From Verrucomicrobiia bacterium (GTDB lineage Bacteria > Verrucomicrobiota > Verrucomicrobiia > Limisphaerales > JADLHS01): a DNA stretch of 64,000 nt. Of the stretch, positions 39,501-56,982 are shown piece by piece. The notes under the pieces were generated by a model. It worked only from the letters and a program-made list of their open reading frames with translations. It ran no database searches and was not told where the DNA came from. Position 1 is the stretch's first letter. The number at the start of each line of letters is the position of its first letter. The translations under genes and the position numbers were made by a program. The DNA lies in assembly GCA_026125285.1 (NCBI GenBank), contig JAHCLO010000012.1, positions 85,008 through 149,007 on the forward strand, read 5' to 3'.

Positions 39501-39889
39501 TGAAGTTCAACCTCACGGGACTACCTTCCCATGCTTCCTCTGCCGTAATTGAACTGTACTCGTTCACCGGCTGGCACAGTGGATTTGTAAACGTCAGCAT
39601 GAATTTGGATCGCGTCACCCAGGATTGGGAGGCGATCTTTGCCACCACGATTATGAAATGGGTGGACCAGCCCGCCGCAGTCAATGTCCGGACGATTCCC
39701 GCTGCGGCAAAAGACAGTTGGTACTCGATTGACGTGACCGATCTGTACAACGCTTGGCAGGCGGGGACGTATCCCAATCACGGCATCGCCCTTCGTCCGA
39801 CGGGCAATGCGAACCAATGGAATTACTTCTGGAGTTCGCGATACATGGTTGATCCCAACCTGCGGCCCAAATTGGTCGTTACGCCGTGA
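36563..39889 (+). CDS. Large secreted multidomain protein: FN3-like N-terminus, 3+2 InlB-B/Listeria-Bacteroides-type repeats flanking an M23 peptidase domain, DNRLRE-like C-terminal domain
   Basis: Signal/TM LLFLLSVVSIQAQ. 77-aa repeats YTISVSASPSGGGTVGGGGTYAAGSSRTVTATANSGYTFVNWTEGG.... M23 motifs HPGWDYAVPVGTPVYAVADG and GGVAPHLHFEV. C-terminal YYHVYLKFNLTGLPSHASSAVIELYS. Confidence 0.85.
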   Translation: MNTPIKIKIEQQLPTNKSAIHRSALLLFLLSVVSIQAQLLPAPSLIGPANGATGVSTTPTLSWTSVTGANRYWVIMSTSQADLPTDPSAVSCPGCVNTGVSGVTGSTSYTLPNAFPYGGTTRTLNPGTTYYWKVQGFVAGGQNGNYSAVRSFTTAGAVQLPTVQTVNASSVTASSAVLHGTIASDGGSTIVERRFDWGNSSGNLNQFTANVSISGNNFSYSLSGLSPNTTYYFRAWAKNGSSQVGPCTSTPGWGCGSILSFTTSTLNYTISVSASPSGGGTVGGGGTYAAGSSRTVTATANSGYTFVNWTEGGSVVSSSASYTFTLNANRTLVANFTATPVNYTISVNASPSGGGTVGGGGTYAAGSSRTVTATANSGYTFANWTEGGTVVSTSASYTFTLNANRTLVANFTSSPVNYTISVSASPGAGGTVSGGGTYAAGSSRTVTATANSGYTFANWTEGGTVVSSSASYTFTLGANRALVANFAVSQALSFRFPLAGYTPYTAPASSVFDHSGLRYVANNEVVAFTGEKGTVRDNVEPPVVTGGQTLYSYKKTDGATFSCNGNYQGTSLTGPTTLNYDGHPGWDYAVPVGTPVYAVADGQVVLVTSDSASGKYVRLQHGSDYQSQYLHLDEQLVVQNANVTKGQLIGKSGNSGGVAPHLHFEVKKLVAGNWVSVDPYGWTGAGSDPYQVANINLWEGGTALNYTISVSASPSGGGTVGGGGTYAAGSSRTVTATANSGYTFVNWTEGGSVVSSSASYTFTLNANRTLVANFTSSPVNYTISVSASPGAGGTVSGGGTYAAGSSRTVTATANSGYTFANWTEGGTVVSTSASYTFTLNANRTLVANFTTTPLQPPKQLTEAVVSNSFFRFTINGPVGSGFVIQVSSNLTHWTSLLTNTVPSSGTRALSEPVPTNSMRRFYRAVPLSQGPLILQPGPEDGQDIWTTSWYSNGTNTVGANGIANETLQVGGWADYYHVYLKFNLTGLPSHASSAVIELYSFTGWHSGFVNVSMNLDRVTQDWEAIFATTIMKWVDQPAAVNVRTIPAAAKDSWYSIDVTDLYNAWQAGTYPNHGIALRPTGNANQWNYFWSSRYMVDPNLRPKLVVTP
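37361..38020. repeat. Intragenic tandem repeat block 1 (three ~231-bp units)
   Basis: Units start at about 37361, 37592 and 37823, each encoding a 77-aa repeat. Confidence 0.8.
38675..39110. repeat. Intragenic tandem repeat block 2 (two ~231-bp units)
   Basis: 38678-38887 is identical by eye to 37364-37573. The second unit is a mosaic of unit 3 (5' half) and unit 2 (3' half). Confidence 0.8.
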
Positions 39890-41647: not shown

Positions 41648-43180
41648 TTACTTCTTTTTTCCTTCGGCCTTGAGCAGTGCCGCCGTCAATCCTTCGATGG
41701 TGTGCGTCTTCGCTTCAATGGCGGGAGTCAGACCCAATGCCTCGATGGCCTTGCTGGTTTCCGGGCCAATGGAGGCGAGGCGCGCTTGCGGAAATTGTCC
41801 CAACAGCATTGGCAAATCGAAGCGCGCGTGAAAGTGTTCCACTGTCGAGCCGCTGGTGAAGGTGATCCAGTCCGCGCCCTCAGCGCGCAGCCTCACTGCA
41901 TCCCCGTTGGCATCCTCGGTTTCCGCCACCGTTTGATAGCAGGGAATGTCATCCACAATGGCGCCGAGTTCTTCGAGTGCCTGGGGCAGGTCGGGATTCG
42001 CCACCTGGGCCCGCAGCAGACAGATCTTCAGGTTCTCAATGCTTTCGTATTGGGAGAACGACTTGGCGATCTTCTTGCCGATGGCTTCTTCGGGCATCAG
42101 GTCCACTTGCAAATGCAACTCGCGCAGTTTCGCCGCCGTGCCCGGCCCCACCGCCGCGATGCGCACCCCGCCGATGTCGCGCGTATCCTTGAACCCTTTG
42201 TAGAAATAATCGAAGAACGCCGTGACGCCATTGGTGCTGGTGAAGACCAGCCAGTCGTAGGCGTTCAATTCCAACAGCGCGTCACCGAGCGGATGCAGGT
42301 TGGCGGGCGGCGCGATTTTGATGCACGGGATTTCCAGGACATCCGCGCCCAGTTCCGTGAGCCGGTTGCTGAACTCCGCCGCCTGCGTGTGCGCGCGTGT
42401 CACCACCACCCGCTGGCCGAACAGCGGTCGGCGCTCGAACCAGTTCAGTTTCTTGCGCAACTTCACCACGTCTCCAATGACCGTCAGCGCGGGCGGCGTT
42501 AGGTCCAGTCTGGCCGCGAGCCTGGCGATGGTGCCCAGCGTTCCGTCAACCGATTGTTGCCGGCCCGTGGTGCCCCAACGCACGATGGCCACCGGAGTCT
42601 CCGGCGACATGCCGCGGGCGATCAGCCCTTCCGTCAACTCGCCCAGCTTCTTCAGGCCCATGAGAATGACCTTCGTGCCGGGAATCCGCGCAATCTGATC
42701 CAGGTCGAAATGACTTTCCTCCCCGCTCGCGCCTTCGTGACCGGTCACCACGGTGAAACTGGAACAATGTTCACGATGGGTGAGCGGAATACCCGCGCAG
42801 TTCGGGGCCGCCACGATGGACGACACCCCGGGCACTACCGCAAAGGGCACGCGCGCATCCGCCAACGCTTCCGCTTCCTCGCCCCCACGGCCAAAGACGT
42901 AGGGATCGCCGCCCTTGAGCCGCACCACGCATTTCCCCTCGCGCGCCTTCGCGATCATCAAGGCATTGATCTGTTCCTGGGATAGCGCCGTATCCGTGGT
43001 ACGACTGCCACGCGAAATCAATTCCGCCGTCGTCGGCGCCAGGCGAAGCAACTCTGGATTGACCAGCACGTCGTAAATCACCACGTCGGCGCGGCGCAGC
43101 AATTCCGCCCCGCGCAACGTGAGCAAACCCGCGTCGCCCGGCCCGGCTCCCACAAGATAGACTGTGCCTGTTTTGTTCAT
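41648..43180 (-). CDS. cobA: Bifunctional uroporphyrinogen-III C-methyltransferase / uroporphyrinogen-III synthase
   Basis: N-terminus VYLVGAGPGDAGLLTLRGAELLRRADVVIYD (TP_methylase). The C-terminal half has the HemD-like duplicated fold (RVVVTRA...; WLVFTSTNGV...; WITFTSGSTV). Confidence 0.85.
   Translation of the reverse strand: MNKTGTVYLVGAGPGDAGLLTLRGAELLRRADVVIYDVLVNPELLRLAPTTAELISRGSRTTDTALSQEQINALMIAKAREGKCVVRLKGGDPYVFGRGGEEAEALADARVPFAVVPGVSSIVAAPNCAGIPLTHREHCSSFTVVTGHEGASGEESHFDLDQIARIPGTKVILMGLKKLGELTEGLIARGMSPETPVAIVRWGTTGRQQSVDGTLGTIARLAARLDLTPPALTVIGDVVKLRKKLNWFERRPLFGQRVVVTRAHTQAAEFSNRLTELGADVLEIPCIKIAPPANLHPLGDALLELNAYDWLVFTSTNGVTAFFDYFYKGFKDTRDIGGVRIAAVGPGTAAKLRELHLQVDLMPEEAIGKKIAKSFSQYESIENLKICLLRAQVANPDLPQALEELGAIVDDIPCYQTVAETEDANGDAVRLRAEGADWITFTSGSTVEHFHARFDLPMLLGQFPQARLASIGPETSKAIEALGLTPAIEAKTHTIEGLTAALLKAEGKKK
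43106..43180. repeat. 75-bp direct repeat, copy A (the real 5' end of cobA-hemD)
   Basis: Matches 43751-43825 at 74 of 75 positions (single G/A difference at 43160/43805). Includes the cobA start codon. Confidence 0.85.
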
Positions 43181-43652: not shown

Positions 43653-43750
43653 GGCAGCCAATCTAAATTGCCGGGAGCTTTCGGTAAAGGGTGATTCCGG
43701 CGAAAGTAGGTGCGCAGGTGCGCCATTGTCAGACGATACTGTGGCATTTT

Positions 43751-43825
43751 CGCCCCGCGCAACGTGAGCAAACCCGCGTCGCCCGGCCCGGCTCCCACAA
43801 GATAAACTGTGCCTGTTTTGTTCAT
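43751..43825. repeat. 75-bp direct repeat, copy B (duplicated cobA 5' end upstream of hicB)
   Basis: See 43106-43180; offset 645 bp. Confidence 0.85.
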
Positions 43826-44102
43826 TCGGGGTGGAGATTAACGAGCACGCGTGAGTGGGGCAAAGCAAAGCGGTACTGACCGTGGTACTAACCGCAGCGA
43901 GGTCGGCGGGGTCGGCGAATGCATCAGCCGAATCCGCCGACACAGACGCGCAGACCCTGAACTCGGAGTCGCGACCGCTTCACGGCGAAACGCCCGCAGT
44001 TGCCGGTGCAAAAGATGTTCAGTGTTTGCCAAAATTAGTGAAGCCAATAGTCTGCAGAGAGGCTAAAAGGCTGTTATGAACTCTCACCAGTTCACATTGT
44101 GC

Positions 44103-44160
44103 GGTTCTTGTCCATCGGTTCTTGTCCATCGGTTCTTGTCCATCGGTTCTTGTCCATCGG
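44103..44160. repeat. Perfect tandem repeat (GGTTCTTGTCCATC) x4, 14-bp unit
   Basis: Four exact copies plus GG, about 150 bp upstream of the 44310 start. The unit length is not a multiple of 3. Confidence 0.9.
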
Positions 44161-44309
44161 AATGAACTGGGTTTCGGCCCAGTTGCTCCGCAATTTTCAA
44201 TTCAATTCCGTCATGCCATCGATGTCGTGGTTTCGTGGTCTTTGCGCATGGTGTTTCCATTAGAACATAGATGCGTCCACGACATTTACACAAAAAGAGA
44301 GGTTGAATC

Positions 44310-47084
44310 ATGCTGAGGAAACCAATTAACGCAAAGGCCCGGAATCTGGCGAGCGGAGTCTGCCTCTTGCTTGGATTTGCACTTTGGGCTCAACTGGATG
44401 ACGACACCGATCCGGGACTTGTGACGGCTCCAAAGATCGTTGAGCAGCCTGCAACGCAGACAGCGGCTTTTGGCGCGAATGTAACTTTCACCGTCGCCGC
44501 AACCGGAGACGATTTGCGCTTCCAATGGTTCAATGGGGAACACAGACTCGCAGACTATGACAACGTGGCCGGCGCCAGCACGGCTAGTCTCACACTGATA
44601 GGTGTGGCGCAGCGTGACGCTGGAAGTTATGCGGTCGTCATCCAGAATCCGCTCGGGGTGGTGACCAGTGCGGTAGCGACTTTACGAGTCAGTTCCACCG
44701 TCTTGTTCCTCGACGATTTCGAGTCGGGCACATTGTCCAATTGGACGGCGTTTTCGGAGGTGCGGGGTTTGACTTTTAAGCCCCGGCAAGACGACCCGTT
44801 GGCACATTTGGTTGCGATTAGCCGAGGTGGACTGGCAGCGGAAGCAACGCGGCTGACGACTTCTCCAACGCAGAACCGCTCGCCCGCCGGTTCTCACAGC
44901 GCCTTGGTTTCAAGTTCCCGGGACAAGATGTTTCACAACCTGGGAATGGAACTCGCGGGCCGAACGAAAGCCACCTTCTGGATTTACGATGATGGCAGCC
45001 AGCCACGCTGTTACGGCGAGTTGCGTGGGTATACCGGAGCGGGACATGGATTGTATCGTGAGCCGGGTGGGTTGAAACAGTCGCTGGCCATTGGGCGCTA
45101 TGGTGTCGGGTTCGGGGCAAACAACGGCACGGGGGTGGTGGCGGGTGAGGTAGTGGACGTAAACAAGTACCAGGGCAGGGTACTGCGCGGGAAGAACACC
45201 GGCTGGTTCAATCTAAACAACCCTGGCACTCCTGACCGTTCCGATGGCTGGCACAAATTTGAAATTGAACGGGAAGCGGATGGTACAACTGTCCACTTCT
45301 ACGTGGACGGCTTCTTGGGACGGACCATTACCGATGCGGACCATGTATTGTTGGATTGCGTTGTTATTGGCTCCGTCGGGGAAGGCACCGGTGTGGGCAA
45401 CGCTTGGTTCGACGACGTCACCGTCGAGGCTTTTCCCTGGCGCTTTGACTGGCAGCGCAAGGATTCCGTGGGTAAAGGCCTGCCCGACTGGATGCAGTTG
45501 CGGGAAACCGGGACGGACTCGCAACAGACCGATATCACGCAGATCAGCACCGTTTCGCAAAGGATGGGTGTCGGCTCCAGTAAAGCCATTGGACGGTGGA
45601 CCGCGGAGGAATCAGGGATCGTTGCTCTCGATATGCGAGGTGGCGTGGAATACGCACTTGATGCACCGGCGGATAACGCATACCGGATCGAGATCGAAGG
45701 CCGCGCGCGTAGTGGGAAGCACTCCGTCGCCCAACTGCCATTGATCATTGCGATTGATGGGGAGACACTCGGTAGATTGGTCTTGGCTTCCAGCGTCGAA
45801 ACCAATGGCGTTATTCACTGCTTCACGCCGTTCCTCCGTGCGGGGCCGCACACTGTCCGGGTTTATTGGGATAATGTGGAAAGTGATATTTCACTCTATT
45901 TGCACGCGATCCGCTTGCAGGCTTTGTCGGGAACGGACGCCAACGCCAACGGCGTAACCGACTGGGTTGAGAACCGCTTGATAAGTCAAAACGGGATTGA
46001 GTTGGCGTCAAGTCACAGTCTTGTCTCGCCCGTTTGTGTTGAGGGACGCGGCCAATACTTGAGCATGATGCAGGCTTGGGCGGGGCATTGGCCTGCGGCA
46101 ATGACGCCGGTGTCCGTCCAACCTGGCGCCGGCCACCGCTGGTACGCCGACGTTCCCCTTGCCCCAGGTGTGCCGACTCAATTGGTGCTGCACTACCAGA
46201 ACGGTGCCTTGGCTGAAACGCGCGAACTGGTCTGGAAAGAAACCAATCTGCTTGAAGCCGGCGATATGGCTGTACGGAAGGGGGATGCCTTGTTACTGAA
46301 CGCAGCACCGGAAGGGGTTTCCGAGGGCACAGTGACAATCACGGTTGTGGGCGTGACCAACTACACATCTGATCCAACCGTGCCGGTGATACATCGCTTT
46401 GATCAGGCCGGGGACTTTACCGTCACGGGCGCGTTCCTGGTGTCGGGCAGGTTAAGCGCGGCCAGCCGCAGCCGCAGCATCACTGTGAGAGTGGTTGAGG
46501 CGTCGTTTGGTGGTCCCGTGGCCACTTGGGCCGCGAAGGGGCGCTACTGGGATGTCTCGCAGTTGCCACCGGAGGTGGTGTTGGATTCGGACCCGCGCTT
46601 GCGAGTCGCAGCCGTCACCGAGCAGGAGGACCGTCTCCAACTCCCTCTCTCTTCACCCACCCCCAATGACCGCCAATACCGCCTTACGAACGACGCAGCA
46701 GAGGTGCGCCACGTTGTGGCGCGTTTGGGAGTGGATGGTCCAATCCTGGCGAGCACCCCCGTTGAAGGTTTCCGGCTGTTCAACTGTTACGACACCTACC
46801 TGAAATATGTTCATATCTACCCGGATGGCAGCCAGTTGGTTGAGGAAGCCCTTGTCCTCAGCCCGGTGCTTCCCAATGTCACTGTGCAAATCCACATCAT
46901 CGTCAGCGGTGTCGTGTTCGAAGACGGGACCGTGACGAAGACCTTGACCGCTGCTGATTTCGATGAATTGGGGATTTACCGGGTTCGCTACGTGCGCGCC
47001 GCCGGGGTCAAATCCAGTGTCTGTCATGTGACAAAGGCCTACCAAGGTGACGTGCTAATTGGCTGGCCTGCCTACGAAAAGTGA
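44310..47084 (+). CDS. Secreted protein with an Ig-like (I-set) domain and a LamG/ConA-like jelly-roll domain
   Basis: Signal peptide. Ig-like IVEQPATQTAAFGANVTFTVAATGDDLRFQWF...AGSYAVVIQNPLG. LamG-like FLDDFESGTLSNWT...WHKFEIEREADGTTVHFYVDG...AWFDDVTVE. Confidence 0.7.
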   Translation: MLRKPINAKARNLASGVCLLLGFALWAQLDDDTDPGLVTAPKIVEQPATQTAAFGANVTFTVAATGDDLRFQWFNGEHRLADYDNVAGASTASLTLIGVAQRDAGSYAVVIQNPLGVVTSAVATLRVSSTVLFLDDFESGTLSNWTAFSEVRGLTFKPRQDDPLAHLVAISRGGLAAEATRLTTSPTQNRSPAGSHSALVSSSRDKMFHNLGMELAGRTKATFWIYDDGSQPRCYGELRGYTGAGHGLYREPGGLKQSLAIGRYGVGFGANNGTGVVAGEVVDVNKYQGRVLRGKNTGWFNLNNPGTPDRSDGWHKFEIEREADGTTVHFYVDGFLGRTITDADHVLLDCVVIGSVGEGTGVGNAWFDDVTVEAFPWRFDWQRKDSVGKGLPDWMQLRETGTDSQQTDITQISTVSQRMGVGSSKAIGRWTAEESGIVALDMRGGVEYALDAPADNAYRIEIEGRARSGKHSVAQLPLIIAIDGETLGRLVLASSVETNGVIHCFTPFLRAGPHTVRVYWDNVESDISLYLHAIRLQALSGTDANANGVTDWVENRLISQNGIELASSHSLVSPVCVEGRGQYLSMMQAWAGHWPAAMTPVSVQPGAGHRWYADVPLAPGVPTQLVLHYQNGALAETRELVWKETNLLEAGDMAVRKGDALLLNAAPEGVSEGTVTITVVGVTNYTSDPTVPVIHRFDQAGDFTVTGAFLVSGRLSAASRSRSITVRVVEASFGGPVATWAAKGRYWDVSQLPPEVVLDSDPRLRVAAVTEQEDRLQLPLSSPTPNDRQYRLTNDAAEVRHVVARLGVDGPILASTPVEGFRLFNCYDTYLKYVHIYPDGSQLVEEALVLSPVLPNVTVQIHIIVSGVVFEDGTVTKTLTAADFDELGIYRVRYVRAAGVKSSVCHVTKAYQGDVLIGWPAYEK

Positions 47085-48052
47085 AAGGTGCGAGACTAAT
47101 CCTGTTGGGGCTCGGCACAACACTGTGCGGCTTAACGTTGGCTGCCGGCAGTGAAGCGTCCGTGGGGACGCCTGTATCCCCGAGGAGGGGCGTTGTCAGT
47201 GGAAAGTTTGCCGTCGAGTTTGCGCCGGTGGTCGGTAGGGAACTGTCCCCGGCGCGCGTTTCGGATGAATCGCTGGTGTTGGCCGTGAGAATGGAGTTGC
47301 GGGCGATAATCGGCGCGGCCGAAGCCAGCTTGGGCGAAAGGATTGAAGCTGTTCATGGTTTGGGCAGGGAATTGGCGCGCGACGAGATTGCGCTTCTCTT
47401 TATGTTTTTGAAAACGCCCCCAGCCCGTAAGGAGCAGGAACTTTCCGACCTGCCCGCGCTTAAGAACGACATTCTGAATGTCTTGCGAATGCAAAACTCG
47501 CCTCCGCCCGGCTTCACCGACACACTGATTTCCATCTGGAGCAATCCCGCACAGGACGTCGTGCTGCGCGACTATGCCCTGCAACACCTCTTCGTCTGGT
47601 ATGAGCAAGGCGCCTTGGATGCCGCTGATGCCAGGACGGAAATCGAGGACACCCTCTTTGGAGCGGCGTGCCAGTTCAACAGCCTGGCTGGTACGGCTCT
47701 CTTGGGCCTGCACCGGTTGTCGGCGGCTGATCCGGCCTTCAGCCACGGAGAGATCAACCGGCTCGCCCTGCGGCTGATTCAGTCGCCCGCCACGGATTTG
47801 GCCACCCGCATCACCGCGATCCAAATTTGTGCCGAGCGCGGCTTGAAGGAGGCGTTGCCAGCCATCGAAGCGGTTGCGCAAGCGTCGGATTGCGTTCCAT
47901 TGCGGCTTTCAGCCAGCGCCGCTACAACCCGCTTAAGTGGAGAGGAGCGAGACTGGCGCTTGGGACCGTGGACGGGCGGGCAGTTTATCGGCACGCCTGC
48001 CGGGCTTGCGGCAACGCTTGGCCCGGCGCCGCGGGACGGACCATACGAGTAA
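47081..48052 (+). CDS. Secreted HEAT/ARM-like repeat protein
   Basis: GTG start overlapping the preceding stop. Signal peptide MKGARLILLGLGTTLCGLTLAAG. Helical repeats (RIEAVHGLG..., RITAIQICAERGLKEALPAI...). Confidence 0.55.
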   Translation: MKGARLILLGLGTTLCGLTLAAGSEASVGTPVSPRRGVVSGKFAVEFAPVVGRELSPARVSDESLVLAVRMELRAIIGAAEASLGERIEAVHGLGRELARDEIALLFMFLKTPPARKEQELSDLPALKNDILNVLRMQNSPPPGFTDTLISIWSNPAQDVVLRDYALQHLFVWYEQGALDAADARTEIEDTLFGAACQFNSLAGTALLGLHRLSAADPAFSHGEINRLALRLIQSPATDLATRITAIQICAERGLKEALPAIEAVAQASDCVPLRLSASAATTRLSGEERDWRLGPWTGGQFIGTPAGLAATLGPAPRDGPYE

Positions 48053-48065
48053 CCGGAGATTGCGC

Positions 48066-50963
48066 ATGAAAAGGATTGTGGCAGGGTTGGGCGTGATGGC
48101 GTGTTTGAGTTTCAGCGGCGTGCGCGGGCAGAACATTGACAACCCGCCCATCCAGGGGGAGTGCCTCACCTGGCGGTGCGAAGTGGTGGACTGCCCCGAC
48201 GGGAGCATGACTTTCGGAGAGCTGGTCATCTGGCCGGAGTCGCCGCTGTGTTTGGGCACGACCATCTCCGCCTCCCCGAACATGGACGCGACCTGCGGCG
48301 AGGCGGTTGCGTTGGGTTATTGGGTGCCGTTCACCACCAATTGTCCTCCACCCGCTTTCTACACCAACGCGTGTTCGTATCCCGGTTCGGTCACCAACTG
48401 GTGGGTGGTGAATCATCCCGGTTTTTCCGCTTCCGGCGAAGGGTTGGGGGTGCAATTCACGCCGACCAACTGCGGTTCGGGGACCATTTCTTTCTACAAT
48501 GTCTGGACCAACGTCAGCCCCTGCGACGGGCATGGGGGCTATGGAGGCTGTGGGGGCGGGTTCATTGCGGTGAGCCGGGATTTTACGGTGCTGAACGTGG
48601 AGATCGCCGAGCCGCACAAGTTTACCTGTGCGTGCGAGACGGTCAGTTACACGCTCACCAACACGTGCGGCGAAGTGACCTGGGAGGTGTGGCCTGAGGA
48701 CCCGGGCGGGCCGCGCGCCGTCGGCAGTTCGATTGTCGCGGGCACCAATTGCGGGACGTGGACGGTGAGCGCGCGGTCGGTGGAGAATCCCAATTGCGCC
48801 GCCGCGGCGACCCTGACCGTGGTGACGGTGGCGGGGCTGTGGCCGGATGCCGGCACGCAGGTGGCCGAAGACCCGCCGACGTACGTGATTTGTCCCGTGC
48901 CGGCCAATGACCCGAATCCCTGGATCACCGTAACGGCTTCCTCGTGTCCCGGGCTGGAAGAAACCAACCTGCCGGCCTGCTGGGAGTTGAGCGGCGGGGT
49001 GGGCGCGGGGCGGTTGGAGCGGAAGGTGGATCGCCGGCAGTTGGGCACGACCACCATTACCGCCACGGCGGGTTGCTCCAGTCAGACCGTGATGATCAGG
49101 GTGGAGGACACCGAAGCGCCCGTGATCTCCTGTCCGGGAGACTTTGGCGTTTGCACGGATGCAGGCCAATGTTATGCGACGGTGGATTTGAACGCTTACG
49201 TGTCGGCGAGCGACAACTGCGGGCCGGTGACAGTTACCTTTTCGCCCGCGGGCCCGCAGTTTGCCAAAGGCACGACCCCCGTGACGGCCACGGCCACGGA
49301 CCTGGCGGGCAACACCGCCCAGTGTACCTTCAGTGTGACCGTGGAGGATTGCGAACCGCCGACGATTCAATGTCCTGGCAACGTGACGACCACCAATGAT
49401 CCTGGCCAGTGTTACGCGACCGGAGTGGCGTTGGGCACGCCGGTCACCTGGGACAACTGCGGGGTGGCGTCGGTTTTCAACAATGCGCCGGCGCAGTTTC
49501 CCGTAGGGACGACCCTGGTCACCTGGACCGTGCGCGATACGGAAGGCTTTACCGCCACTTGCGTGCAGGTGGTGCAGGTCAACGACACGGAACCGCCGGG
49601 GATCACGTGTGCGTCCAACCTCGTGGTGTGCGCGAGCGCCTCCGGCAGCAACATCGTTACCTGGCCGACGCCGGTGGCCACGGATAATTGCTCGGTGGCC
49701 AGCGTGACCTGCGACCCGCCGTCGGGATCGTGGTTCGCCATTGGCGTCAGCGAGGTAACCTGCACGGCGGTTGACGCATCGGGAAACTCGAACAGTTGCA
49801 CGTTTACGGTGAGCGTGGTCAAATTGGACGTGACCAACATCAAGTTCAATCACGACACCAGTTCGTCCGTGTCGGATGCTATCAACCTCCGGCAGGATTT
49901 CGCCACGCCCTATGATATTTCCAACGGAGAATGGATCCAGGGCGGAGCAAACCTCCCGGTCTGCTACACGGCGAGCAAAGCGGTGACGATCCGAGTGCGG
50001 CTGACGGTCCAGCCGGCGAGTGTGACCAGTGCCGATGTGTGGGCGGCTTCAACCGATCTGGACGGCTCATTGGGAGACATTGTCAATACAACCGTCACGT
50101 TCGCTAGCGGGGTGTCCAGCCCTGAATACGTGACGTTCACTGTCTCTGGTAACACCCCGGCTACCATCAAGAAGACCGCCACCGACGTGTGGCAGTGGAA
50201 GATGGAAAACCTCAATGGAACCGGTTCTTCGGCGTGCGATCTGAATACCTCAGGCCCGCACACGGTTTACACAATCCTCGCAGACCCGGTTGCGCCTTGG
50301 GATAACACAGCAGGCAGTCATTACAATGCATGGTCGAGCGCCCTTGAAGTTGTATGCGACGTAACGCCGTGGGCAGGCGGAACCGCTACCATGGAGACAG
50401 CCGCTACGCGCATTGTTGAAAGCATATATGGTTCAGGTCGGTTCAGCTACGATACTACCTATGGTGCTGCCCATTATCTTGCGGCAGGAAACGTCGTTGA
50501 ATTCACAGAATGCCTTGACAGGCTTGGGGGAGGCATAGGTTTAGGGAGCTTGATAAACTGTACGGACTGCGCCAATTTCGTAACTGCTTTTGTGAACCTA
50601 ATTGGAGGTGGCTTGTACAGTTCAAGAATGGGATTCAACTTCCTTACGAATCCGTATAGCGCAATTGGCAGAGCAAGTTGGACTCCACCCTCATGGGGTT
50701 GGGGGTTCAGTTACCACGAAGTTGGCTGGACTGCTGCTTGCGGCGACTCGGATACGGTGTTTGATGCGTGTCTGAAAGTCGATGGCGACGGGGACCCAAG
50801 CGCACCACCAAGATCAGAAAGAACCCCTGCCAACATGATCTTCAGCGATGGTGACCAAAATGCACCTTACGTGTATCGAGAGAGTCTGGCGTCACCCGGA
50901 GCGCCGGGATACGGTAGCTGTGTTTCACAACCGGCCACAAGAGTCCGCCGCATGATCCGATAA
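48066..50963 (+). CDS. Secreted protein with three HYR domains and a C-terminal domain carrying Cys-His-Asp motifs in transglutaminase/papain-like order (cassette A, full length)
   Basis: Signal peptide MKRIVAGLGVMACLSFSGVRG. HYR pattern three times (DTEAPVISCPGD...CYATV...ASDNCGPV...GTTPVTATATDLAGNTAQCTFSVTVED and so on). C-terminal motifs INCTDCANFVTAFVNLIGG, FSYHEVGW, VFDACL. ATG at 48066 within ORF 47937..50963. Confidence 0.8.
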   Translation: MKRIVAGLGVMACLSFSGVRGQNIDNPPIQGECLTWRCEVVDCPDGSMTFGELVIWPESPLCLGTTISASPNMDATCGEAVALGYWVPFTTNCPPPAFYTNACSYPGSVTNWWVVNHPGFSASGEGLGVQFTPTNCGSGTISFYNVWTNVSPCDGHGGYGGCGGGFIAVSRDFTVLNVEIAEPHKFTCACETVSYTLTNTCGEVTWEVWPEDPGGPRAVGSSIVAGTNCGTWTVSARSVENPNCAAAATLTVVTVAGLWPDAGTQVAEDPPTYVICPVPANDPNPWITVTASSCPGLEETNLPACWELSGGVGAGRLERKVDRRQLGTTTITATAGCSSQTVMIRVEDTEAPVISCPGDFGVCTDAGQCYATVDLNAYVSASDNCGPVTVTFSPAGPQFAKGTTPVTATATDLAGNTAQCTFSVTVEDCEPPTIQCPGNVTTTNDPGQCYATGVALGTPVTWDNCGVASVFNNAPAQFPVGTTLVTWTVRDTEGFTATCVQVVQVNDTEPPGITCASNLVVCASASGSNIVTWPTPVATDNCSVASVTCDPPSGSWFAIGVSEVTCTAVDASGNSNSCTFTVSVVKLDVTNIKFNHDTSSSVSDAINLRQDFATPYDISNGEWIQGGANLPVCYTASKAVTIRVRLTVQPASVTSADVWAASTDLDGSLGDIVNTTVTFASGVSSPEYVTFTVSGNTPATIKKTATDVWQWKMENLNGTGSSACDLNTSGPHTVYTILADPVAPWDNTAGSHYNAWSSALEVVCDVTPWAGGTATMETAATRIVESIYGSGRFSYDTTYGAAHYLAAGNVVEFTECLDRLGGGIGLGSLINCTDCANFVTAFVNLIGGGLYSSRMGFNFLTNPYSAIGRASWTPPSWGWGFSYHEVGWTAACGDSDTVFDACLKVDGDGDPSAPPRSERTPANMIFSDGDQNAPYVYRESLASPGAPGYGSCVSQPATRVRRMIR

Positions 50964-51003
50964 TTGGATGAAGTTTGAGCGCAACTGACACCTTTTCACA
51001 ATT

Positions 51004-51570
51004 ATGAAACCGAAGTTACAAACAGTACCATTAATTGCCCTTGTGCTTGCGGCAGCTATGATGCCGCATGCATTTATGGCACAGGAGGCAAACACACCGC
51101 TCGAAACAACAAAAGTGGTATACGCCTTCACCAATTGGGTTGGGCAGACACGCTCCGGCTACCTGAGCAGTGTTATCAACTGGACCCCTGATTTTGCGGC
51201 CACTGGATTTACGAACGTAATCGCGAAAATGAAACCAGATAAGCAAACAGTGTATATGTTGCATCGGGAGGCGGCAGATTCTGTGACGGTGCGGGTTGTT
51301 GAGTGTGATACTGTACGCTCGGCGCATGAGGGGCTTGTCGAATTGCTCTCCAATTGTTCCGCCCCGCAGCCACTCCCCGATGGAAAGCTCGCAGGCCTTG
51401 ACATCGGAGATAAGTGCTATGTTGGTTACCCAACCAATGCCCCACTCGGAGTTCTCTTTGTCAGGAACAACCTGCTCATTCGCATTGACACCGTACAATC
51501 AAACATCAACATTCCAAGCATCGCCAGAGCCTTGGATAATCAAGTGAAAACACGCTCCGGGCAACGTTGA
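51004..51570 (+). CDS. Small secreted protein (188 aa), unknown function, partner of cassette A
   Basis: Signal peptide MKPKLQTVPLIALVLAAAMMPHAFMAQ. Starts 41 nt after the cassette A stop. Visibly lower GC than its surroundings. Confidence 0.6.
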   Translation: MKPKLQTVPLIALVLAAAMMPHAFMAQEANTPLETTKVVYAFTNWVGQTRSGYLSSVINWTPDFAATGFTNVIAKMKPDKQTVYMLHREAADSVTVRVVECDTVRSAHEGLVELLSNCSAPQPLPDGKLAGLDIGDKCYVGYPTNAPLGVLFVRNNLLIRIDTVQSNINIPSIARALDNQVKTRSGQR

Positions 51571-51640
51571 GGGTTAAAGGAAATGCCTCTCTGGAATGTC
51601 ACGTTCATGAGAGATCAGAGCGCCAATAGCCTTCCCGCGA

Positions 51641-53650
51641 TTGATTGCGGCGCAGCCGGGGCCAGCTGCTGGCCCGCTGGTGGATCGCCGGCAGTTGGGC
51701 ACGAGCACCATTACCGCCACGGCGGGTTGCTCCAGTCAGACCGTGATGATCAGGGTGGAGGACACCGAAGCGCCCGTGATCTCCTGTCCGGGAGACTTTG
51801 GCGCTTGCACAGATGCAGGCCAATGTTATGCGACGGTGGATTTGAACGCTTACGTGTCGGCGAGCGACAACTGCGGGCCGGTGACAGTTACCTTTTCGCC
51901 CCCGGGCCAGCAGTTTGCCAAAGGCACGACCCCCGTGACGGTCACCGCCACGGACCTGGCGGGCAACACAGCCCAGTGTACCTTCAACGTGATCGTGGAG
52001 GATTGCGAACCGCCGACGATTCAATGTCCTGGCAACGTGACGACCACCAATGATCCTGGCCAATGTTACGCGACCGGAGTGGCCTTGGGCACGCCGGCCA
52101 CCTGGGACAACTGCGGGGTGGCGTCGGTTTTCAACAATGCGCCGGCGCAATTTCCCGTGGGCACCACCCTGGTCACCTGGACCGTGCGCGATACGGAAGG
52201 CTTTACCGCCACGTGCGTGCAGGTGGTGCAGGTCAACGACACGGAACCGCCGGGGATCACGTGTGCGTCCAACCTCGTGGTGTGCGCGAGCGTCTCCGGC
52301 AGCAACATCGTTACCTGGCCGACGCCGGTGGCGACGGATAATTGCGCGGTGACCAGCGTGACCTGCGACCCGCCGTCGGGATCGTGGTTCGCCATTGGTG
52401 TCAGCAACGTAACCTGCACGGCCGTTGACGCGTCGGGAAACTCGAACAGTTGCACGTTTACGGTATCTGTAATCAAGGTGACTCTGAGCAACGTGACATT
52501 TTCCGGCACGAATTACCATCCGGTGCTGCAGGATGATGGAAGCGGTGCGTATCCCGCGCCGCACTGGACGACGAACACCAGTTGGCCAGTCTGCTACACG
52601 CGGAACACGCATATGGGGGTAAGCGCCGTGTTTCTCGTTGAGCCGCCAAGCTGGTCCGGCCCGGTGGTGGTGCATGGGGACAGCAGCGGGCCGAAACTGC
52701 CGGCAACGACCAACACGGCTTCCGGCGGGACGCTGACGGTGGGGCCAATCACGTCCACCAACGCGTTTGCCAACCAGGTGGATTTCTTGAATCCGATGAG
52801 CATCAACTGGTCGTACTCGCTGGATTCCGGCGCAAACTGGTGCGACGCAGGCATCAGCACCAATCTGGTGTATGTGACTTGGACCAATAGCTTGAACACA
52901 ATTCACACCCTGCTTGATGTTGGGTGTCGGGCCGCCCAAGGGGCTATCGGGATCGTCGGTGCGAACGATGATCGAGTGCTTGATGCAGTCTGGGCGGAGA
53001 TTCAAACCCTGTCCATACGCAGAGCCTCTGACAATGTCATGCTCACGTATTACGGCTTTTATGATGTGAACACGAATGGTGCATGGGATCCTGGTACGGA
53101 CGTCAATCGTAACACTCCAGACCTTTGCATTGTGACGGATGCTGCAAACTTGATTAGTGCGGGCAATGGGCAGTGTCGTTCCTGGGCCGATTTCATGCTC
53201 CAAGCTCTGCGGGCGCAAGGGCTGGCTACTGTAAACGGTGGTCCTGTGGCGCTTCAGGCAGTGGTCATCAAGTCACCCTACGTGGCGTTTGCCGTTCAGA
53301 ACTGGGCAACCACTGGTAGTTCCCCACGCACGGTCATATCTCTTGATGCAGGTGTAGACGGGGCAACTCCAGCAGTACCTAATCCTTCATCCGACGAGGC
53401 TGCAGATTCTCTAGGTGCGGCTGGACAAGGCAATTCCCCCAATCCGCCATCTAACTTCTACAATCATTGGATTGTAAGGCGAGGACAAACTTATTACGAC
53501 CCGAGCTACGCCTTAGGTCCTTTTACCGACCGCAAGGTGTACGAAGAAGCGGCATTTGCTGGCAGGCACCGCTTCCGCTTGCTCTATGATTCGCCGGCTA
53601 ACGATGGAGATCCGGACAACCACTCTGACGAAATCAACAACTATCCGTAA
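51641..53650 (+). CDS. 5'-truncated HYR-domain paralog with a divergent Cys-His-Asp C-terminal domain (cassette B); no signal peptide
   Basis: 51679-52464 duplicates 49025-49810 (786 bp, no indels, about 28 substitutions by manual alignment). The sequence then diverges. C-terminal motifs GNGQCRSWADFMLQALRAQGL, FYNHWIV, TYYDPSY. It has only a TTG start and no secretion signal. Confidence 0.6.
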   Translation: MIAAQPGPAAGPLVDRRQLGTSTITATAGCSSQTVMIRVEDTEAPVISCPGDFGACTDAGQCYATVDLNAYVSASDNCGPVTVTFSPPGQQFAKGTTPVTVTATDLAGNTAQCTFNVIVEDCEPPTIQCPGNVTTTNDPGQCYATGVALGTPATWDNCGVASVFNNAPAQFPVGTTLVTWTVRDTEGFTATCVQVVQVNDTEPPGITCASNLVVCASVSGSNIVTWPTPVATDNCAVTSVTCDPPSGSWFAIGVSNVTCTAVDASGNSNSCTFTVSVIKVTLSNVTFSGTNYHPVLQDDGSGAYPAPHWTTNTSWPVCYTRNTHMGVSAVFLVEPPSWSGPVVVHGDSSGPKLPATTNTASGGTLTVGPITSTNAFANQVDFLNPMSINWSYSLDSGANWCDAGISTNLVYVTWTNSLNTIHTLLDVGCRAAQGAIGIVGANDDRVLDAVWAEIQTLSIRRASDNVMLTYYGFYDVNTNGAWDPGTDVNRNTPDLCIVTDAANLISAGNGQCRSWADFMLQALRAQGLATVNGGPVALQAVVIKSPYVAFAVQNWATTGSSPRTVISLDAGVDGATPAVPNPSSDEAADSLGAAGQGNSPNPPSNFYNHWIVRRGQTYYDPSYALGPFTDRKVYEEAAFAGRHRFRLLYDSPANDGDPDNHSDEINNYP

Positions 53651-54429
53651 TGTGTGCCAGTAATATTGTTATGAAAATCAGCCTTTACGTCTTGTTTTTT
53701 GTTTTGAGCCAGATATTGCTGCCCTACGCCGAGGCGCAGGTTTCCACAAATGTCCCGGCGCCATCCCCACGCCAATTACACCTGCAAGCTATCCAAGCAT
53801 ACAGGACACTTCTGGCGGAGAGAGACTTCAACAAACTTCAGACGATGGCGGCGCAGTTGAAATTGCAGAGCACAGAACCTTGGTTTGAGTCCGCGTTAAT
53901 GATACTGGTGGAGGGAATCAGGTCCGACCGCGGGGTTGAGTTAACAAACGGTGTTGACATTGTCGTGCCCAGCCGGGTCCGGGCAGGAATGATGGAAGCA
54001 GGTGGTGGCACCATCGTGAGGCAAGATGTTTTTACGGAAGGTGGGCGTGCCGCATGGGTGTTGGAGCGGCTGCTGGTTGTTGATTTGCCGGAGGTTTCGT
54101 CTGGTATGTCAGCCGACACAAAGGAGGATGCCGTTTTGGATGCTTTTTTCCTTGTGAAAGAGTTCCTGCTGCCAAGCGAAAGAAAGACCGACCTTTCCAA
54201 GCTTTCTGATTCCGATAAGCTGACTCTTGCAGCGGCAGGCGAAGCATCCGAGAGCGCATTGGCTATGCTTTCAAAGGAGACAAACGTTGACATCAGAAAG
54301 GCCGTTGCGAAGCATAGTAATACTCCCGTGCAAGTCTTGGCACGGTTGGCATACCGCGACCAGAGCGCTGAAGTCCGAGATCTTGCGGAATCGAATTTGG
54401 CGAAAGCTCGTATGCTACCAAAGCATTAG
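53650..54429 (+). CDS. Small secreted HEAT/LRV-like repeat protein (259 aa), partner of cassette B
   Basis: ATG overlaps the cassette B stop (TAATG). Signal peptide ISLYVLFFVLSQILLPYAEA. C-terminal DIRKAVAKHSNTPVQVLARLAYRDQSAEVRDLAESN resembles LRV/HEAT repeats. Lower GC. Confidence 0.6.
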   Translation: MCASNIVMKISLYVLFFVLSQILLPYAEAQVSTNVPAPSPRQLHLQAIQAYRTLLAERDFNKLQTMAAQLKLQSTEPWFESALMILVEGIRSDRGVELTNGVDIVVPSRVRAGMMEAGGGTIVRQDVFTEGGRAAWVLERLLVVDLPEVSSGMSADTKEDAVLDAFFLVKEFLLPSERKTDLSKLSDSDKLTLAAAGEASESALAMLSKETNVDIRKAVAKHSNTPVQVLARLAYRDQSAEVRDLAESNLAKARMLPKH

Positions 54430-54605
54430 CACAATGCTGCAAGCAACCTTGAAATGGTTCGTTCTCATTGTTTGCTTTGCCTGGTGCCTGGGCGGCCCCA
54501 GTGGTGACAGAATCACGAGTCCTCCAACCACCGCTTCGCTCCACCGCACAAGCGATCCAAGAAAGGTCCTCATCCAGCCTACACGAGTCACGCTCCAACA
54601 GCACG

Positions 54606-54963
54606 GAACTGCGAACCACCGCAGTTTCAGTGTCCCGGCAACGTGACGACCACCAATGATCCTGGCCAATGTTACGCGACCGGGGTGGCCTTGGGCACGC
54701 CGGTCACCTGGGACAACTGCGGGGTGGCGTCGGTTTTCAACAATGCGCCGGCGCAGTTTCCCGTGGGCACCACCCTGGTCACCTGGACCGTGCGCGATAC
54801 GGAAGGCTTCACCGCCACGTGCGTGCAGGTGAAACCGGCCTCCGAAAACTTGCACCAAGTTTCGCCTGAGCGCGTCAGTTGCTATTACTTCAGAACCGGC
54901 TTCGCCTTTGCCGATTCCCAATGGCCGAAGCGATCCTTGGGCACTCTGGCTTTTTCCGGATAG
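54606..54963 (+). pseudogene. Third, fragmentary HYR cassette (a single HYR domain, then unrelated sequence to a stop)
   Basis: 54631-54831 aligns with 52025-52225 and 49371-49571. The frame reads (NCEPPQFQ)CPGNVTTTNDPGQCYATGVALGTPVTWDNCGVASVFNNAPAQFPVGTTLVTWTVRDTEGFTATCVQV, then diverges. A signal-peptide-like ORF (MLQATLKWFVLIVCFAWCLGG) lies just upstream in another frame. Confidence 0.6.
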
Positions 54964-56036
54964 ATGAAATAGACCGCGTTTTTCGAGTGGGCCCAGGCGT
55001 CCACCAGATTCGCTCGCGGGAAGATCTTGCGGACGTTCTTGCTCGTGCCGGGATCGTTGACAATGACGTCGCCGGTGGCGGTGAAACCAACGCACACCAC
55101 CAAATGGCCGCTGGGTTCACGACCCTTTCCCCGGAAGCGATTGTAGCAGAGCGACAATCCCACCGGGATGCCGCGCGCAATCCAATCTTCCAATTCCGAC
55201 ACGTCGGTGAGGCGCGTGGTGTAGGCGCGCATGCCGGGCAGCGCGCCCGCGTAGGCGGTGTTGAAAACCCAATTGCCCGTGCCGCCCCATTTCGGATCGT
55301 GAACCCCGGTCACGATTTCCGGCACATCGTGATCCAGGCTGGGACGCTTCAAGACCCGGCTCCAATGCGCCATCATCATGGAGACGGTGGTGGGGCTGCA
55401 CAACACGCCGCCGTTTTCGTAGGCCATTTGTGAACGTTCGGGCACGGCAAGGGTTTTGCCCCAGGCCGCGCGATTCGGCGGGAGTGATTCGCGCTGCGCG
55501 CCGGTGTCCGTCAGCGAGAGGCCCAGGAATTTCAACTTGGGCTTTTCCCGTCCCGCGCCTCCCAGTGTCAGTCGAACTTGGAAACATTTCGTGGGTTCAC
55601 GCAGAATCAGCGTATCGGTGTCCACGTTGCCGTCGGCGTCCTTCTGCCGGCGCACGCTCTCGCGCGGGTGCCGCGCGGGATCACCGGACCAAAGCCCGAG
55701 AACGTACCACTTGGTGGTGTGACTCGGATAAATCGCGCGAGCCTCGATCTTGAGATAGGCGCTGGCGGGCATTTCCACGTTCCAGGAGGCAATCAGTTCA
55801 TCCCAAGCGATGCGACTGTGGATTTCGCGTGAAGTCAGAATGATTTCGCCCGGTTGCTTCCCCGGCGATTTCTTGAATGTGCCAAACGATTTGAACGCGA
55901 TGAATTGCTGACCGCGCGCGTCGAAGGGTTCGCTGGAAACGTTCATTGGAGGGAGACAGAGCACTGCCAGTGCAAAGCAGACTGATCGTAACAGGGACCG
56001 GGCGGAGATGTGGTTAACCAACAACAACTGGCGCAT
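54885..56036 (-). CDS. Secreted C39-like (Peptidase_C39_2) cysteine peptidase-domain protein
   Basis: Signal peptide. GGVLCSPTTVSMMMAHW (candidate Cys nucleophile) and SGHLVVCVGF...VNDPG (His/Asp) fit the C39-like/papain fold. Confidence 0.6.
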   Translation of the reverse strand: MRQLLLVNHISARSLLRSVCFALAVLCLPPMNVSSEPFDARGQQFIAFKSFGTFKKSPGKQPGEIILTSREIHSRIAWDELIASWNVEMPASAYLKIEARAIYPSHTTKWYVLGLWSGDPARHPRESVRRQKDADGNVDTDTLILREPTKCFQVRLTLGGAGREKPKLKFLGLSLTDTGAQRESLPPNRAAWGKTLAVPERSQMAYENGGVLCSPTTVSMMMAHWSRVLKRPSLDHDVPEIVTGVHDPKWGGTGNWVFNTAYAGALPGMRAYTTRLTDVSELEDWIARGIPVGLSLCYNRFRGKGREPSGHLVVCVGFTATGDVIVNDPGTSKNVRKIFPRANLVDAWAHSKNAVYFIYPEKARVPKDRFGHWESAKAKPVLK

Positions 56037-56088
56037 GACAGCGCGGATGATGTCAACGGCACGGGGTTTTCACCAGTTCAATCCGGTG

Positions 56089-56982
56089 TCACATGGTTCC
56101 GAGCGCCAGTGCCCAAGTCCAGATGACGAGTGCGGTGAAAATGAAACCGGCCAGGAAGTTGACGGTCGGGCGGGTTGTCCAGTCTCCGGTCAGCGTCAGC
56201 AAGACGCCCAAAACCAATCCCGAGATGAAACCGCCAAAGTGCGCCATGATGTCCGTGCCCGGCGACATGCCCAGCAACGCGAACAGCATCAAGCCGCCTG
56301 CCACGCCGCCAAGAGCGATTCTTAACGCATTGGGATTGCGGCGGAGCAGACTCATGGATTGCGCCGCCACCAATCCCAGCGCGCCCATGACCACGCCGGA
56401 CGCGCCCAAGCCGCGGAAATCATCGCCGCGCACCAGCCAGGACAGTACGTTGCCGCCGGCGCCAGCCAGAAACGCCGCCAATAATCCCACGCCCGTGCCG
56501 TAACGTCCCATGGCCAGTCCGATTAGGATGAAACCGAACACAGCGTTCGCCGCCAGATGCGCGAGGTCGCCATGCAGCAACGTGGCGGTGAACAGTCGCC
56601 ACCATTCCCCAGCGGCGGCCGCCTTGGCGTCCATGATCCCGGCGTCGCGCAACGCCGCGTTGCGATCGCTTAACCAGTAGAACGCGAACGTCAGCAGGAC
56701 CCACGCGGCGCCAGCCCAATCGAAGATGGTGTGCGTCTTGAAGATGGGTTTGCGCCACGGCCAGCCGAGATTCTCAACTCGATAAGTCCGGATGGCCGCC
56801 ACGGATTTGTCGTAATCTTCCGGTGCCACCACCAGGGTCCAGCGTCCATCCTCGATCTGTTCAATCACCGGTTCGATGCCCTGGCTGGCGAGCACCAACC
56901 CCCAGTCCATCGCCTGCCGCTTTGTGCGTGCGGGGATGCGCGCGACGGGTTCGAGGTTGGGTGGTTGAGGGTTCAGTTGCAT
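56089..56982 (-). CDS. Rhomboid-family intramembrane serine protease
   Basis: Six or more TM segments, TATLLHGDLAHLAANAVFGF (H motif) and GASGVVMGALG (GxSG catalytic serine). Confidence 0.85.
   Translation of the reverse strand: MQLNPQPPNLEPVARIPARTKRQAMDWGLVLASQGIEPVIEQIEDGRWTLVVAPEDYDKSVAAIRTYRVENLGWPWRKPIFKTHTIFDWAGAAWVLLTFAFYWLSDRNAALRDAGIMDAKAAAAGEWWRLFTATLLHGDLAHLAANAVFGFILIGLAMGRYGTGVGLLAAFLAGAGGNVLSWLVRGDDFRGLGASGVVMGALGLVAAQSMSLLRRNPNALRIALGGVAGGLMLFALLGMSPGTDIMAHFGGFISGLVLGVLLTLTGDWTTRPTVNFLAGFIFTALVIWTWALALGTM

Follow-up and report, generated by a model that had tools for sequence, protein, structure and literature searches.

A candidate polymorphic secreted-effector locus with a displaced orphan cassette in a Verrucomicrobiia bacterium

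We analysed a 64-kb stretch of DNA from a Verrucomicrobiia bacterium (64,000 nucleotides, referred to below as the window), in which a full-length gene for a secreted protein with HYR domains, gene A, is followed by a truncated second unit, unit B, that repeats part of gene A, runs on into a different C-terminal domain and has a small gene of its own downstream. We favour, at a probability of roughly 60%, the reading that this is a polymorphic secreted-effector locus carrying one displaced orphan cassette. A first-pass annotation made from the letters alone had already suggested an orphan-module arrangement, and that suggestion gains support from our comparisons: the small partner gene follows the type of tail, truncated orphans occur in other assemblies, and the N-terminal domain of gene A is joined elsewhere to many different tails.

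A truncated unit shares a sharply bounded repeat with gene A

The product of gene A comprises, in order, a signal peptide, an unnamed N-terminal domain, an Ig-like domain marked by the motif 'AGCSS', three HYR domains and the C-terminal tail CT-A (Table 1). It is identical to GenBank MCW5553213.1, recorded as 'HYR domain-containing protein' of a Verrucomicrobiae metagenome-assembled genome (MAG; locus tags KIS67_13760–13785), where it lies on a contig of 178,582 nt. The Pfam HYR model (PF02494) scores 114 bits over three stretches in A, 116 bits over three stretches in B and 23.3 bits in a downstream remnant, fragment C (cut-off 21.7). It was the sole match to Pfam or NCBIfam in A and B; residues 1–320 of gene A matched no Pfam family, and both tails and sA, the small gene after A, were without a match to either library.

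Unit B begins inside the Ig-like domain that precedes HYR1 in gene A. An in-frame stop just 5′ of 51641 closes its frame, so that neither a signal peptide nor the first ~320 codons of gene A can belong to it. Its only possible starts are TTG at 51641 and GTG at 51680, with no ATG; GenBank MCW5553215.1 (656 aa) uses the GTG, which lies at the second base of the repeat. An exact protein look-up of unit B gave no match. Judged from its sequence, the unit B product would not be exported as it stands. Typical signal peptides open both sA and sB, the small gene after B. The start of sA lies 40 nt beyond the stop of gene A, the ATG of sB overlaps the TAA of unit B by one base, and upstream of gene A the start of up323 overlaps the stop of up924. 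A promoter and terminator scan of 43800–56200 found no signal separating the units; it returned fewer sites than shuffled sequence and is uninformative for this phylum, as was an inspection for Shine-Dalgarno sequences.

The two copies of the repeat, which we call the handle, align without gaps over 786 nt with 28 mismatches (96.4% identity in a comparison at offset 2654), and the longest perfect runs between them are 98, 90, 79 and 69 nt. Beyond the repeat, identity drops to background (~25–40%) within a few bases on both sides. The edges coincide with domain boundaries, the 3′ edge falling inside the codons for ...CTFTV/SV. The differences divide into 15 synonymous and 13 non-synonymous changes (dS 0.08, dN/dS 0.28), too few to judge selection on B. 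The G+C content at third codon positions (GC3) is 0.81 in the N-terminal part of gene A and 0.79 in both handle copies, against 0.58 in CT-A, 0.53 in sA, 0.61 in CT-B and 0.57 in sB. This break coincides with the end of the repeat, which argues for a history of the tails and partners separate from that of the scaffold, the conserved part of the protein that precedes the tail.

Fragment C is ~95% identical to the other copies, with 10 mismatches to B versus 14 to A, and no part of the locus is found again elsewhere in the 64-kb window. A 70-codon open reading frame (ORF; 54434–54646), located between the stop of sB and fragment C, opens with a signal-peptide-like sequence (MLQATLKWFVLIVCFAWCLGG...) and is read in another frame than fragment C; it could be a remnant of a partner gene or a chance ORF. 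We considered simple tandem duplication as a sufficient cause of the arrangement and rejected it, as identity passes from 96% to background at both edges. An assembly artefact, which the first-pass annotation had named as grounds for abandoning its proposal, is also unlikely, because the copies differ at 28 sites and have unique flanks, and because an independent contig from the European Nucleotide Archive (ENA; L070, 1.4 kb, found by look-up of sB) is 99.9% identical over 53236–54541 and has the same arrangement.

Most of what the first-pass annotation had read from the letters is borne out: an indel-free 786-bp copy with about 28 substitutions (exactly 28 in our comparison), a switch of sequence at ...CTFTVSV, three HYR domains in the full-length protein (Pfam finds three in B and one in fragment C as well), a second unit lacking the signal peptide and the first ~320 codons, and a signal-peptide protein whose start overlaps the stop of B. 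Some lengths change. The C-terminal domains span 381 aa (A) and 392 aa (B) after CTFTVSV instead of ~420 aa, the gap after the gene A stop is 40 nt instead of 41, and the third HYR copy does exist, with a length of 222 nt instead of 201.

Table 1. Features of the effector locus, in window coordinates
Feature	Position	Strand	Description	Record or basis
up924	44310..47084	+	924 aa; N-terminal Ig I-set domain (Pfam), remainder unnamed	GenBank MCW5553211.1
up323	47081..48052	+	323 aa; signal-peptide-like N-terminus, weak HEAT-like signal (HEAT_2)	
Gene A	48066..50963	+	965 aa; full-length effector gene	ORF, Pfam HYR x3
Handle copy A	49025..49810	+	End of Ig-like domain and HYR1–3	
CT-A	49818..50960	+	381 aa; beta-sandwich and transglutaminase-like core, Cys248/His300/Asp316	
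sA	51004..51570	+	188 aa; signal peptide, partner gene of CT-A	
Unit B	51641..53650	+	Orphan cassette gene; 669 aa from TTG 51641 or 656 aa from GTG 51680	
Handle copy B	51679..52464	+	Ungapped repeat of handle copy A	
CT-B	52472..53647	+	392 aa; beta-sandwich and transglutaminase-like core, Cys235/His332/Asp343	
sB	53650..54429	+	259 aa (252 aa in GenBank); signal peptide, partner gene of CT-B	GenBank MCW5553216.1
Fragment C	54610..54831	+	222-nt remnant of HYR domain 2; no usable start, no tail	

Both tails are predicted transglutaminase-like enzymes

AlphaFold2 models of the tails, built with family alignments, reached a predicted local distance difference test score (pLDDT) of 96.4 for CT-A and 96.7 for CT-B, and both consist of a beta-sandwich followed by an alpha/beta core. 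The best Foldseek match of CT-A in the Protein Data Bank (PDB) is factor XIII (E 5e-6), and CT-B matches protein 4.2, TG3 and TG2 (E 5e-5 to 1e-3); TM-scores are low (0.23–0.36) and the matches cover only part of the larger targets, so that they are evidence of fold class and assign no function. We collected 91 relatives of CT-A, mostly from Kiritimatiellia, Lentisphaerae and Verrucomicrobia MAGs, and 55 relatives of CT-B. Within each family a Cys is invariant and a His and an Asp are at least 90% conserved (C248/H300/D316 in CT-A, C235/H332/D343 in CT-B). The orphan CT-B keeps these catalytic residues intact and is 99% conserved in another sample. On the strength of the triad and the modelled core fold, we assign both tails as predicted members of the transglutaminase-like (papain-fold) superfamily. 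The Pfam Transglut_core model matches neither CT-A nor CT-B, and PDB sequence searches with both tails and both partners yielded nothing usable. The transglutaminase-like character proposed in the first-pass annotation agrees with the leading structural matches, which are all to animal-type transglutaminases (FXIII, TG2, TG3 and protein 4.2), and with the conserved Cys-His-Asp residues.

Direct sequence similarity between CT-A and CT-B is marginal. A profile–profile comparison of the two families with hhalign, however, detects homology from the beta-sandwich into the first helices (98.2% probability, E 4e-14) and nothing in the catalytic halves. The tails are therefore a single type of enzyme in two deeply diverged forms and cannot be called unrelated.

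Partner genes follow the type of tail

In a first survey of 17 loci, most tail genes were followed within 0–30 nt by an ORF of 150–410 aa with a signal-peptide-like start, and the two genes of a pair often share overlapping stop and start codons. The exceptions, without such an ORF directly downstream, were L010, L012, L013 and L017; loci added later (L018, L021, L071 and L072) pair tail and partner in the same manner. In a Lentisphaerae MAG (L003) the gene after a CT-A homologue of 65% identity is a homologue of sA (40%, E 8e-24), and at L006 a more distant CT-A-type tail precedes a relative of sA. At L002 a CT-B homologue (38%) is followed by an sB homologue (32%, E 9e-9) that shows the same weak LRV match as sB. 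Among the compared loci we saw no CT-A-type tail with an sB-type partner, nor the reverse. The small genes therefore co-vary with the C-terminal domains, sA-type with CT-A and sB-type with CT-B; the first-pass annotation had made its proposal depend on such co-variation.

Many partners of CT-A-type tails have common motifs by eye, in the order Y.F..W, iGD.c, lF.R.N.vv and A..LD, and these partners, sA included, appear to form one fast-evolving family. Among 253 locus pairs, 12 had significantly similar partners, and nine of these lay in the top tenth for tail similarity. Partner similarity correlates with tail similarity overall (Spearman 0.26, p 3e-5), with a p value that is indicative only because the pairs are not independent. 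Loci L008 and L072 have tails that are 67–70% identical and partners that are 48% identical behind upstream protein parts that are unrelated, and by sequence comparison they represent the clearest case of a putative mobile cassette.

Two loci carry stand-alone, signal-less relatives of CT-A followed by sA-family partners that also lack signal peptides (the pairs span L022 8001–9941 and L024 5149–7311). The partner thus has a signal peptide when the enzyme does and none when the enzyme has none, which indicates that enzyme and partner share a compartment. Searches of Pfam and NCBIfam with 20 partner proteins gave only weak LRV or HEAT signals. In sB Pfam finds a sub-threshold LRV (HEAT-like) repeat, and sA has no match in Pfam or the PDB.

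One scaffold carries many tails

A HMMER search with residues 1–320 of gene A against 1.84 billion cluster representatives gave at least 150 matches, 65 of them at E 1e-10 or better. In 73 of the N-terminal-domain matches, at least 120 residues follow the scaffold, and these tails fall into at least 31 BLAST clusters. Even close relatives of A in the N-terminal domain (40–54% identical) carry other tails. The alternatives include other transglutaminase-like subtypes, a domain with an HExxH motif, one tail that by eye resembles a CHAP/NlpC-type cysteine peptidase domain, and several without recognisable features. In a Pfam search of the tail pool most tails were unmatched; the matches were to Transglut_core (two), DUF6973 (two), DUF7689 (two), a DUF900 hydrolase (one) and an AHH nuclease (one). 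Some tails of the pool contain HExxH motifs. One conserved N-terminal region is thus combined with alternative C-terminal domains and a tail-specific small gene lies downstream, as in polymorphic toxins.

The AHH domain is a classic polymorphic-toxin payload. The AHH match lies at threshold (20.9–22.5 bits against a cut-off of 22.3) and is the sole direct link from the tail pool to a known toxin domain. The protein concerned, P0289 from the representative library (1518 aa), has the borderline AHH-type nuclease domain at its C-terminus and contains four internal copies of the N-terminal subdomain of A (residues 45–156).

The genes upstream of A are conserved with the scaffold. L021 and L071 have syntenic operons, with up924 homologues that are 57% and 55% identical and up323 homologues that are 48% and 54% identical, in which the effector has the N-terminal domain of A with other tails and other partners. 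A more distant up924 homologue (29%) lies upstream of a CT-A-type gene at L004. As up924 and up323 are kept where tails differ, the upstream genes track the scaffold and the gene after the effector tracks the tail.

Truncated cassettes recur in other genomes

Truncated orphan cassettes are present in three other assemblies (L001, L007 and L072). In a related species (L001), the full-length gene has a signal peptide, the N-terminal domain, three HYR domains and a CT-B-type tail. It is followed by a small secreted protein, an orphan, a 256-aa secreted partner and a unit joining an HYR fragment to another tail, so that the locus holds two orphans. The first of these starts inside the tail beta-sandwich and shares ~157 nt with the main gene at 92–99% identity. 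In the ENA contig the full-length homologue (L001 2496–5312) lies in three frames with two apparent frameshifts, which may be sequencing errors or mark a pseudogene and which bear on whether the locus is active. A Kiritimatiellaeota locus (L007) consists of a full gene, its partner, an orphan with a handle 86–88% identical at the DNA level, and a second partner. At L072 a gene for a HEAT-like partner is followed after 40 nt by a signal-less ORF that begins 'GSHTVTANAGCSS', the same Ig-like domain position at which unit B starts, and continues through two HYR domains and a CT-A-type tail to a partner; this contig carries no full-length gene for comparison of handles.

The orphan junctions thus fall at domain boundaries: after the Ig-like 'AGCSS', after HYR3 ('CTFTVxV') and between the beta-sandwich and the catalytic core. 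In the window, L001 and L007 the orphan modules share a homologous stretch with the full-length gene, again as in polymorphic toxins, and by these comparisons the design of the window is a recurrent one. When JGI metagenomes were scanned at the DNA level with a degenerate form of the handle motif DNCGVASVxNNAP, 45 loci came back, all of them generic HYR proteins at no more than 56% identity. The first-pass annotation had proposed looking for CT-B behind the full-length N-terminus. A gene of this composition exists in the related species at L001, and no recombinant of the present species was found.

Relation to known polymorphic systems

In the general scheme of a polymorphic-toxin locus (PMC4436062), an accessory gene precedes the genes for the toxin and the immunity protein, and there are orphan modules with a shared region of homology. 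The layout of the window locus matches this scheme, the homologous region of the orphan modules included. The MafB proteins of Neisseria have a Sec signal peptide, a conserved N-terminal domain and variable tails, and are accompanied by MafI immunity genes, orphan MafB-CT modules and mafA upstream (PMC4436062). The window locus resembles MafB/MafI in several respects: the variable C-terminal domain comes after a Sec signal peptide and a conserved N-terminal domain, the next gene downstream is a small cognate one, orphan tail and partner modules without the N-terminal region follow, and a conserved accessory gene lies upstream in the operon, where mafA stands in Neisseria. In both, Sec is the only recognised export step (PMC4436062). 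The differences lie in the parts. DUF1020 (PF06255) is absent and the N-terminal domain here has no Pfam family; the handle is an HYR/Ig stalk; the tails have a transglutaminase fold whereas those of MafB are RNases or deaminases; the partners carry signal peptides; and the hosts are Verrucomicrobia, Kiritimatiellia and Lentisphaerae. By analogy, we judge the locus to be a putative Sec-dependent polymorphic effector system that is closest in layout to Neisseria MafB.

Orphans of Rhs and CdiA offer a further parallel: downstream, signal-less cassettes of tail and partner keep part of the conserved region that precedes them, the junction has a sharp border, and the GC content of the cassette is below that of the core. 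Among the results of Koskiniemi et al. (2014; PMC3967940) is that recombination can deploy an orphan. Searches of Pfam and NCBIfam found no YD/RHS repeats and no PxxxxDPxGL motif in A and B; no two-partner secretion (TPS) domain, filamentous haemagglutinin (FHA) repeats, VENN motif or CdiB were found in A, B and the neighbouring genes; and no type VI secretion system (T6SS) genes were detected in the operon or the immediately flanking genes. Unlike in Rhs and CdiA systems, delivery into a target cell would be hypothetical here. The locus belongs to none of the Rhs, CdiA and MafB families.

Zhang et al. (2012) described Sec-dependent polymorphic toxins, the Tox-TGase payload and immunity proteins of the HEAT type (PMC3482391), so that the general kind of system is known; HYR does not occur in the text of that paper. 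What the window tails share with Tox-TGase is the C-terminal position of a transglutaminase-like Cys-His-Asp domain in Sec-dependent multidomain proteins of free-living bacteria (PMC3482391). Compared by description, CT-A and CT-B differ from Tox-TGase in having no Transglut_core match and an N-terminal beta-sandwich like that of animal transglutaminases. Our literature searches found no description of the gene A scaffold or of an HYR handle.

A model for the locus and the points against it

On the reading that we favour, up924, up323, A and sA form the expressed unit, an operon in which the product of gene A is exported through its Sec signal peptide as a conserved scaffold with an exchangeable enzymatic tail. 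The spare cassette consists of the last 786 nt of the scaffold, CT-B and sB, without an export signal. Each small protein would bind its own tail, most likely in the role of a specific inhibitor (an immunity protein). RecA-type recombination between the handles would then, in a single step, remove CT-A and sA and bring CT-B and sB behind the exported scaffold. The present order could have arisen when an incoming segment of handle, CT-A and sA displaced CT-B and sB. Fragment C, which has neither a start nor a tail, is probably the scar of an older recombination event.

We also propose, more tentatively and with less confidence than we place in the reading of the locus, that these features together describe a previously unnamed family of Sec-dependent polymorphic toxins of the Planctomycetes–Verrucomicrobia–Chlamydiae (PVC) bacteria (Verrucomicrobia, Kiritimatiellia and Lentisphaerae). 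Such a family would combine a new N-terminal trafficking domain and the conserved helper genes up924 and up323 with HYR and Ig domain boundaries that serve as recombination handles. Its payloads would include animal-type transglutaminase-fold enzymes acting in the periplasm or cell envelope, each neutralised by a fast-evolving periplasmic immunity protein of an unnamed family.

Several observations weigh against a polymorphic effector locus with a displaced cassette. Known toxin domains are nearly absent from the tail pool, and in the Pfam and NCBIfam search the partners match no known immunity family. The signal-less pair at L024 lies inside a cluster of non-ribosomal peptide synthetase (NRPS), pyridoxal-phosphate (PLP)-enzyme, MbtH and phosphopantetheinyl transferase (PPTase) genes, a setting unlike interbacterial warfare, so that the pair also occurs outside loci of effector type. 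No recombinant strain of this species was found, the sole other contig (L070, covering 53236–54541) having the same arrangement. Unit B is an intact 2-kb ORF with a handle dN/dS of 0.28 and is an ordinary coding sequence in GenBank; it may be expressed in its own right. Finally, the source is a MAG, and signal peptides were called by eye and by a crude rule.

Alternative explanations

The alternative that survives best, and which we nevertheless consider unlikely, keeps the architecture and changes the function. The proteins would be secreted housekeeping enzymes, with cross-linking, deamidating or proteolytic activity, that serve the surface, the matrix or nutrient processing, and the partner would be a periplasmic foldase, a chaperone, a pro-domain in trans or a self-protecting inhibitor, with no interbacterial toxin or immunity involved. 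Secreted enzymes with a dedicated inhibitor or foldase are exemplified by staphopain–staphostatin and LipA–Lif. As at the window locus, a small gene immediately downstream supplies a specific partner in the compartment of the enzyme; unlike the window locus, these pairs are neither modular nor polymorphic and have no orphan cassettes with handles. Best structural matches to true transglutaminases, not to cell-wall amidases or nucleases, suit such a role, as do the scarcity of known toxin domains among the alternative tails, HYR and Ig stalks of a kind typical of adhesins, and the constant sharing of one compartment by enzyme and partner, the signal-less pairs at L022 and L024 (the latter in its NRPS-type cluster) included. 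Housekeeping does not, however, lead one to expect a single scaffold to bear at least 31 unrelated tail clusters with a different partner for each, nor signal-less spare cassettes in four lineages (in the window, L001 and L007 with DNA handles, and in L072), nor a compositional break at the junction; and one relative ends in an AHH-type nuclease domain, although by a borderline match.

It is less probable still that unit B and fragment C are decaying leftovers of a tandem duplication, or of a 5′-truncated paralogue, with the identity of the HYR region maintained by gene conversion. Unit B has neither a signal peptide nor an ATG and starts partway through a domain, fragment C is plainly dead, and full-length family paralogues do stand in tandem in L020 and L071. 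Decay sits poorly, however, with a reading frame that is uninterrupted over 669 codons and encodes an intact catalytic triad, with a CT-B that is 99% conserved in another sample, and with an intact sB joined to B by overlapping stop and start codons. The truncated design recurs with the same Ig-like start point in L072 and with other junctions in L001 and L007, and 96% identity beside undetectable DNA similarity calls for either an exchange of cassettes or a conversion kept within strict bounds.

Antigenic or phase variation of a surface adhesin, in which silent cassettes would donate by gene conversion, as in pilE/pilS and vls, in escape from phage or predators, was the other analogy drawn in the first-pass annotation, and we hold it to be very improbable: a surface-type protein with HYR and Ig domains and a promoter-less copy of silent type with a conserved handle do recall such systems, but the locus has a single usable cassette besides a dead fragment, what varies is an entire enzyme of two domains, its triad conserved and intact, and not a set of surface loops, and each cassette brings its own co-varying secreted partner gene, which antigenic-variation systems lack.

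Neighbouring features of the window

Beyond fragment C, a convergent gene on the minus strand (54885–56036) encodes a papain-like Peptidase_C39_2 protein with a signal-peptide-like N-terminus and ends 53 nt from fragment C; we found no evidence linking this peptidase gene to the cassette locus. Two other genes of the window encode proteins of secreted-type architecture: one of 1108 aa (36563–39889) with an M23 peptidase and five InlB B-repeat domains, the source of 225-nt repeats, and one of 1558 aa (22535–27211) with CotH-kinase and lamin-tail domains. An 82-nt direct repeat, 96% identical (43099–43180 and 43744–43825), duplicates the first codons of a cobA/hemD fusion gene (41648–43180, minus strand; TP_methylase and HEM4) 645 nt upstream. 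An N6/N4 DNA methyltransferase gene is present three times in tandem at 211–4204, with a period of 1493 nt and 94–95% identity, and the last copy has an extra C-terminal Mrr-type restriction endonuclease domain. This unusual triplication could reflect amplification or phase-variable restriction–modification.

Implications

Polymorphic toxin systems have been studied in depth in Proteobacteria, Firmicutes and Bacteroidetes. For the PVC group, a mostly uncultured set of bacteria that abound in soil, water and guts, we are aware of hardly any such work. Should this locus indeed be a polymorphic secreted-effector system, it would add a new delivery scaffold and a new use of HYR domains, as homology handles. 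It would also open a large pool of uncharacterised enzymatic payloads, with at least 31 tail clusters of which most have no Pfam family, and would define a new protein family whose members specifically inhibit transglutaminase-fold enzymes. With its two cognate pairs, the window would provide a ready-made comparison of specificity. Because the pair of enzyme and partner also occurs elsewhere as a stand-alone, signal-less module, a single solved pair would annotate many genes that are at present hypothetical.

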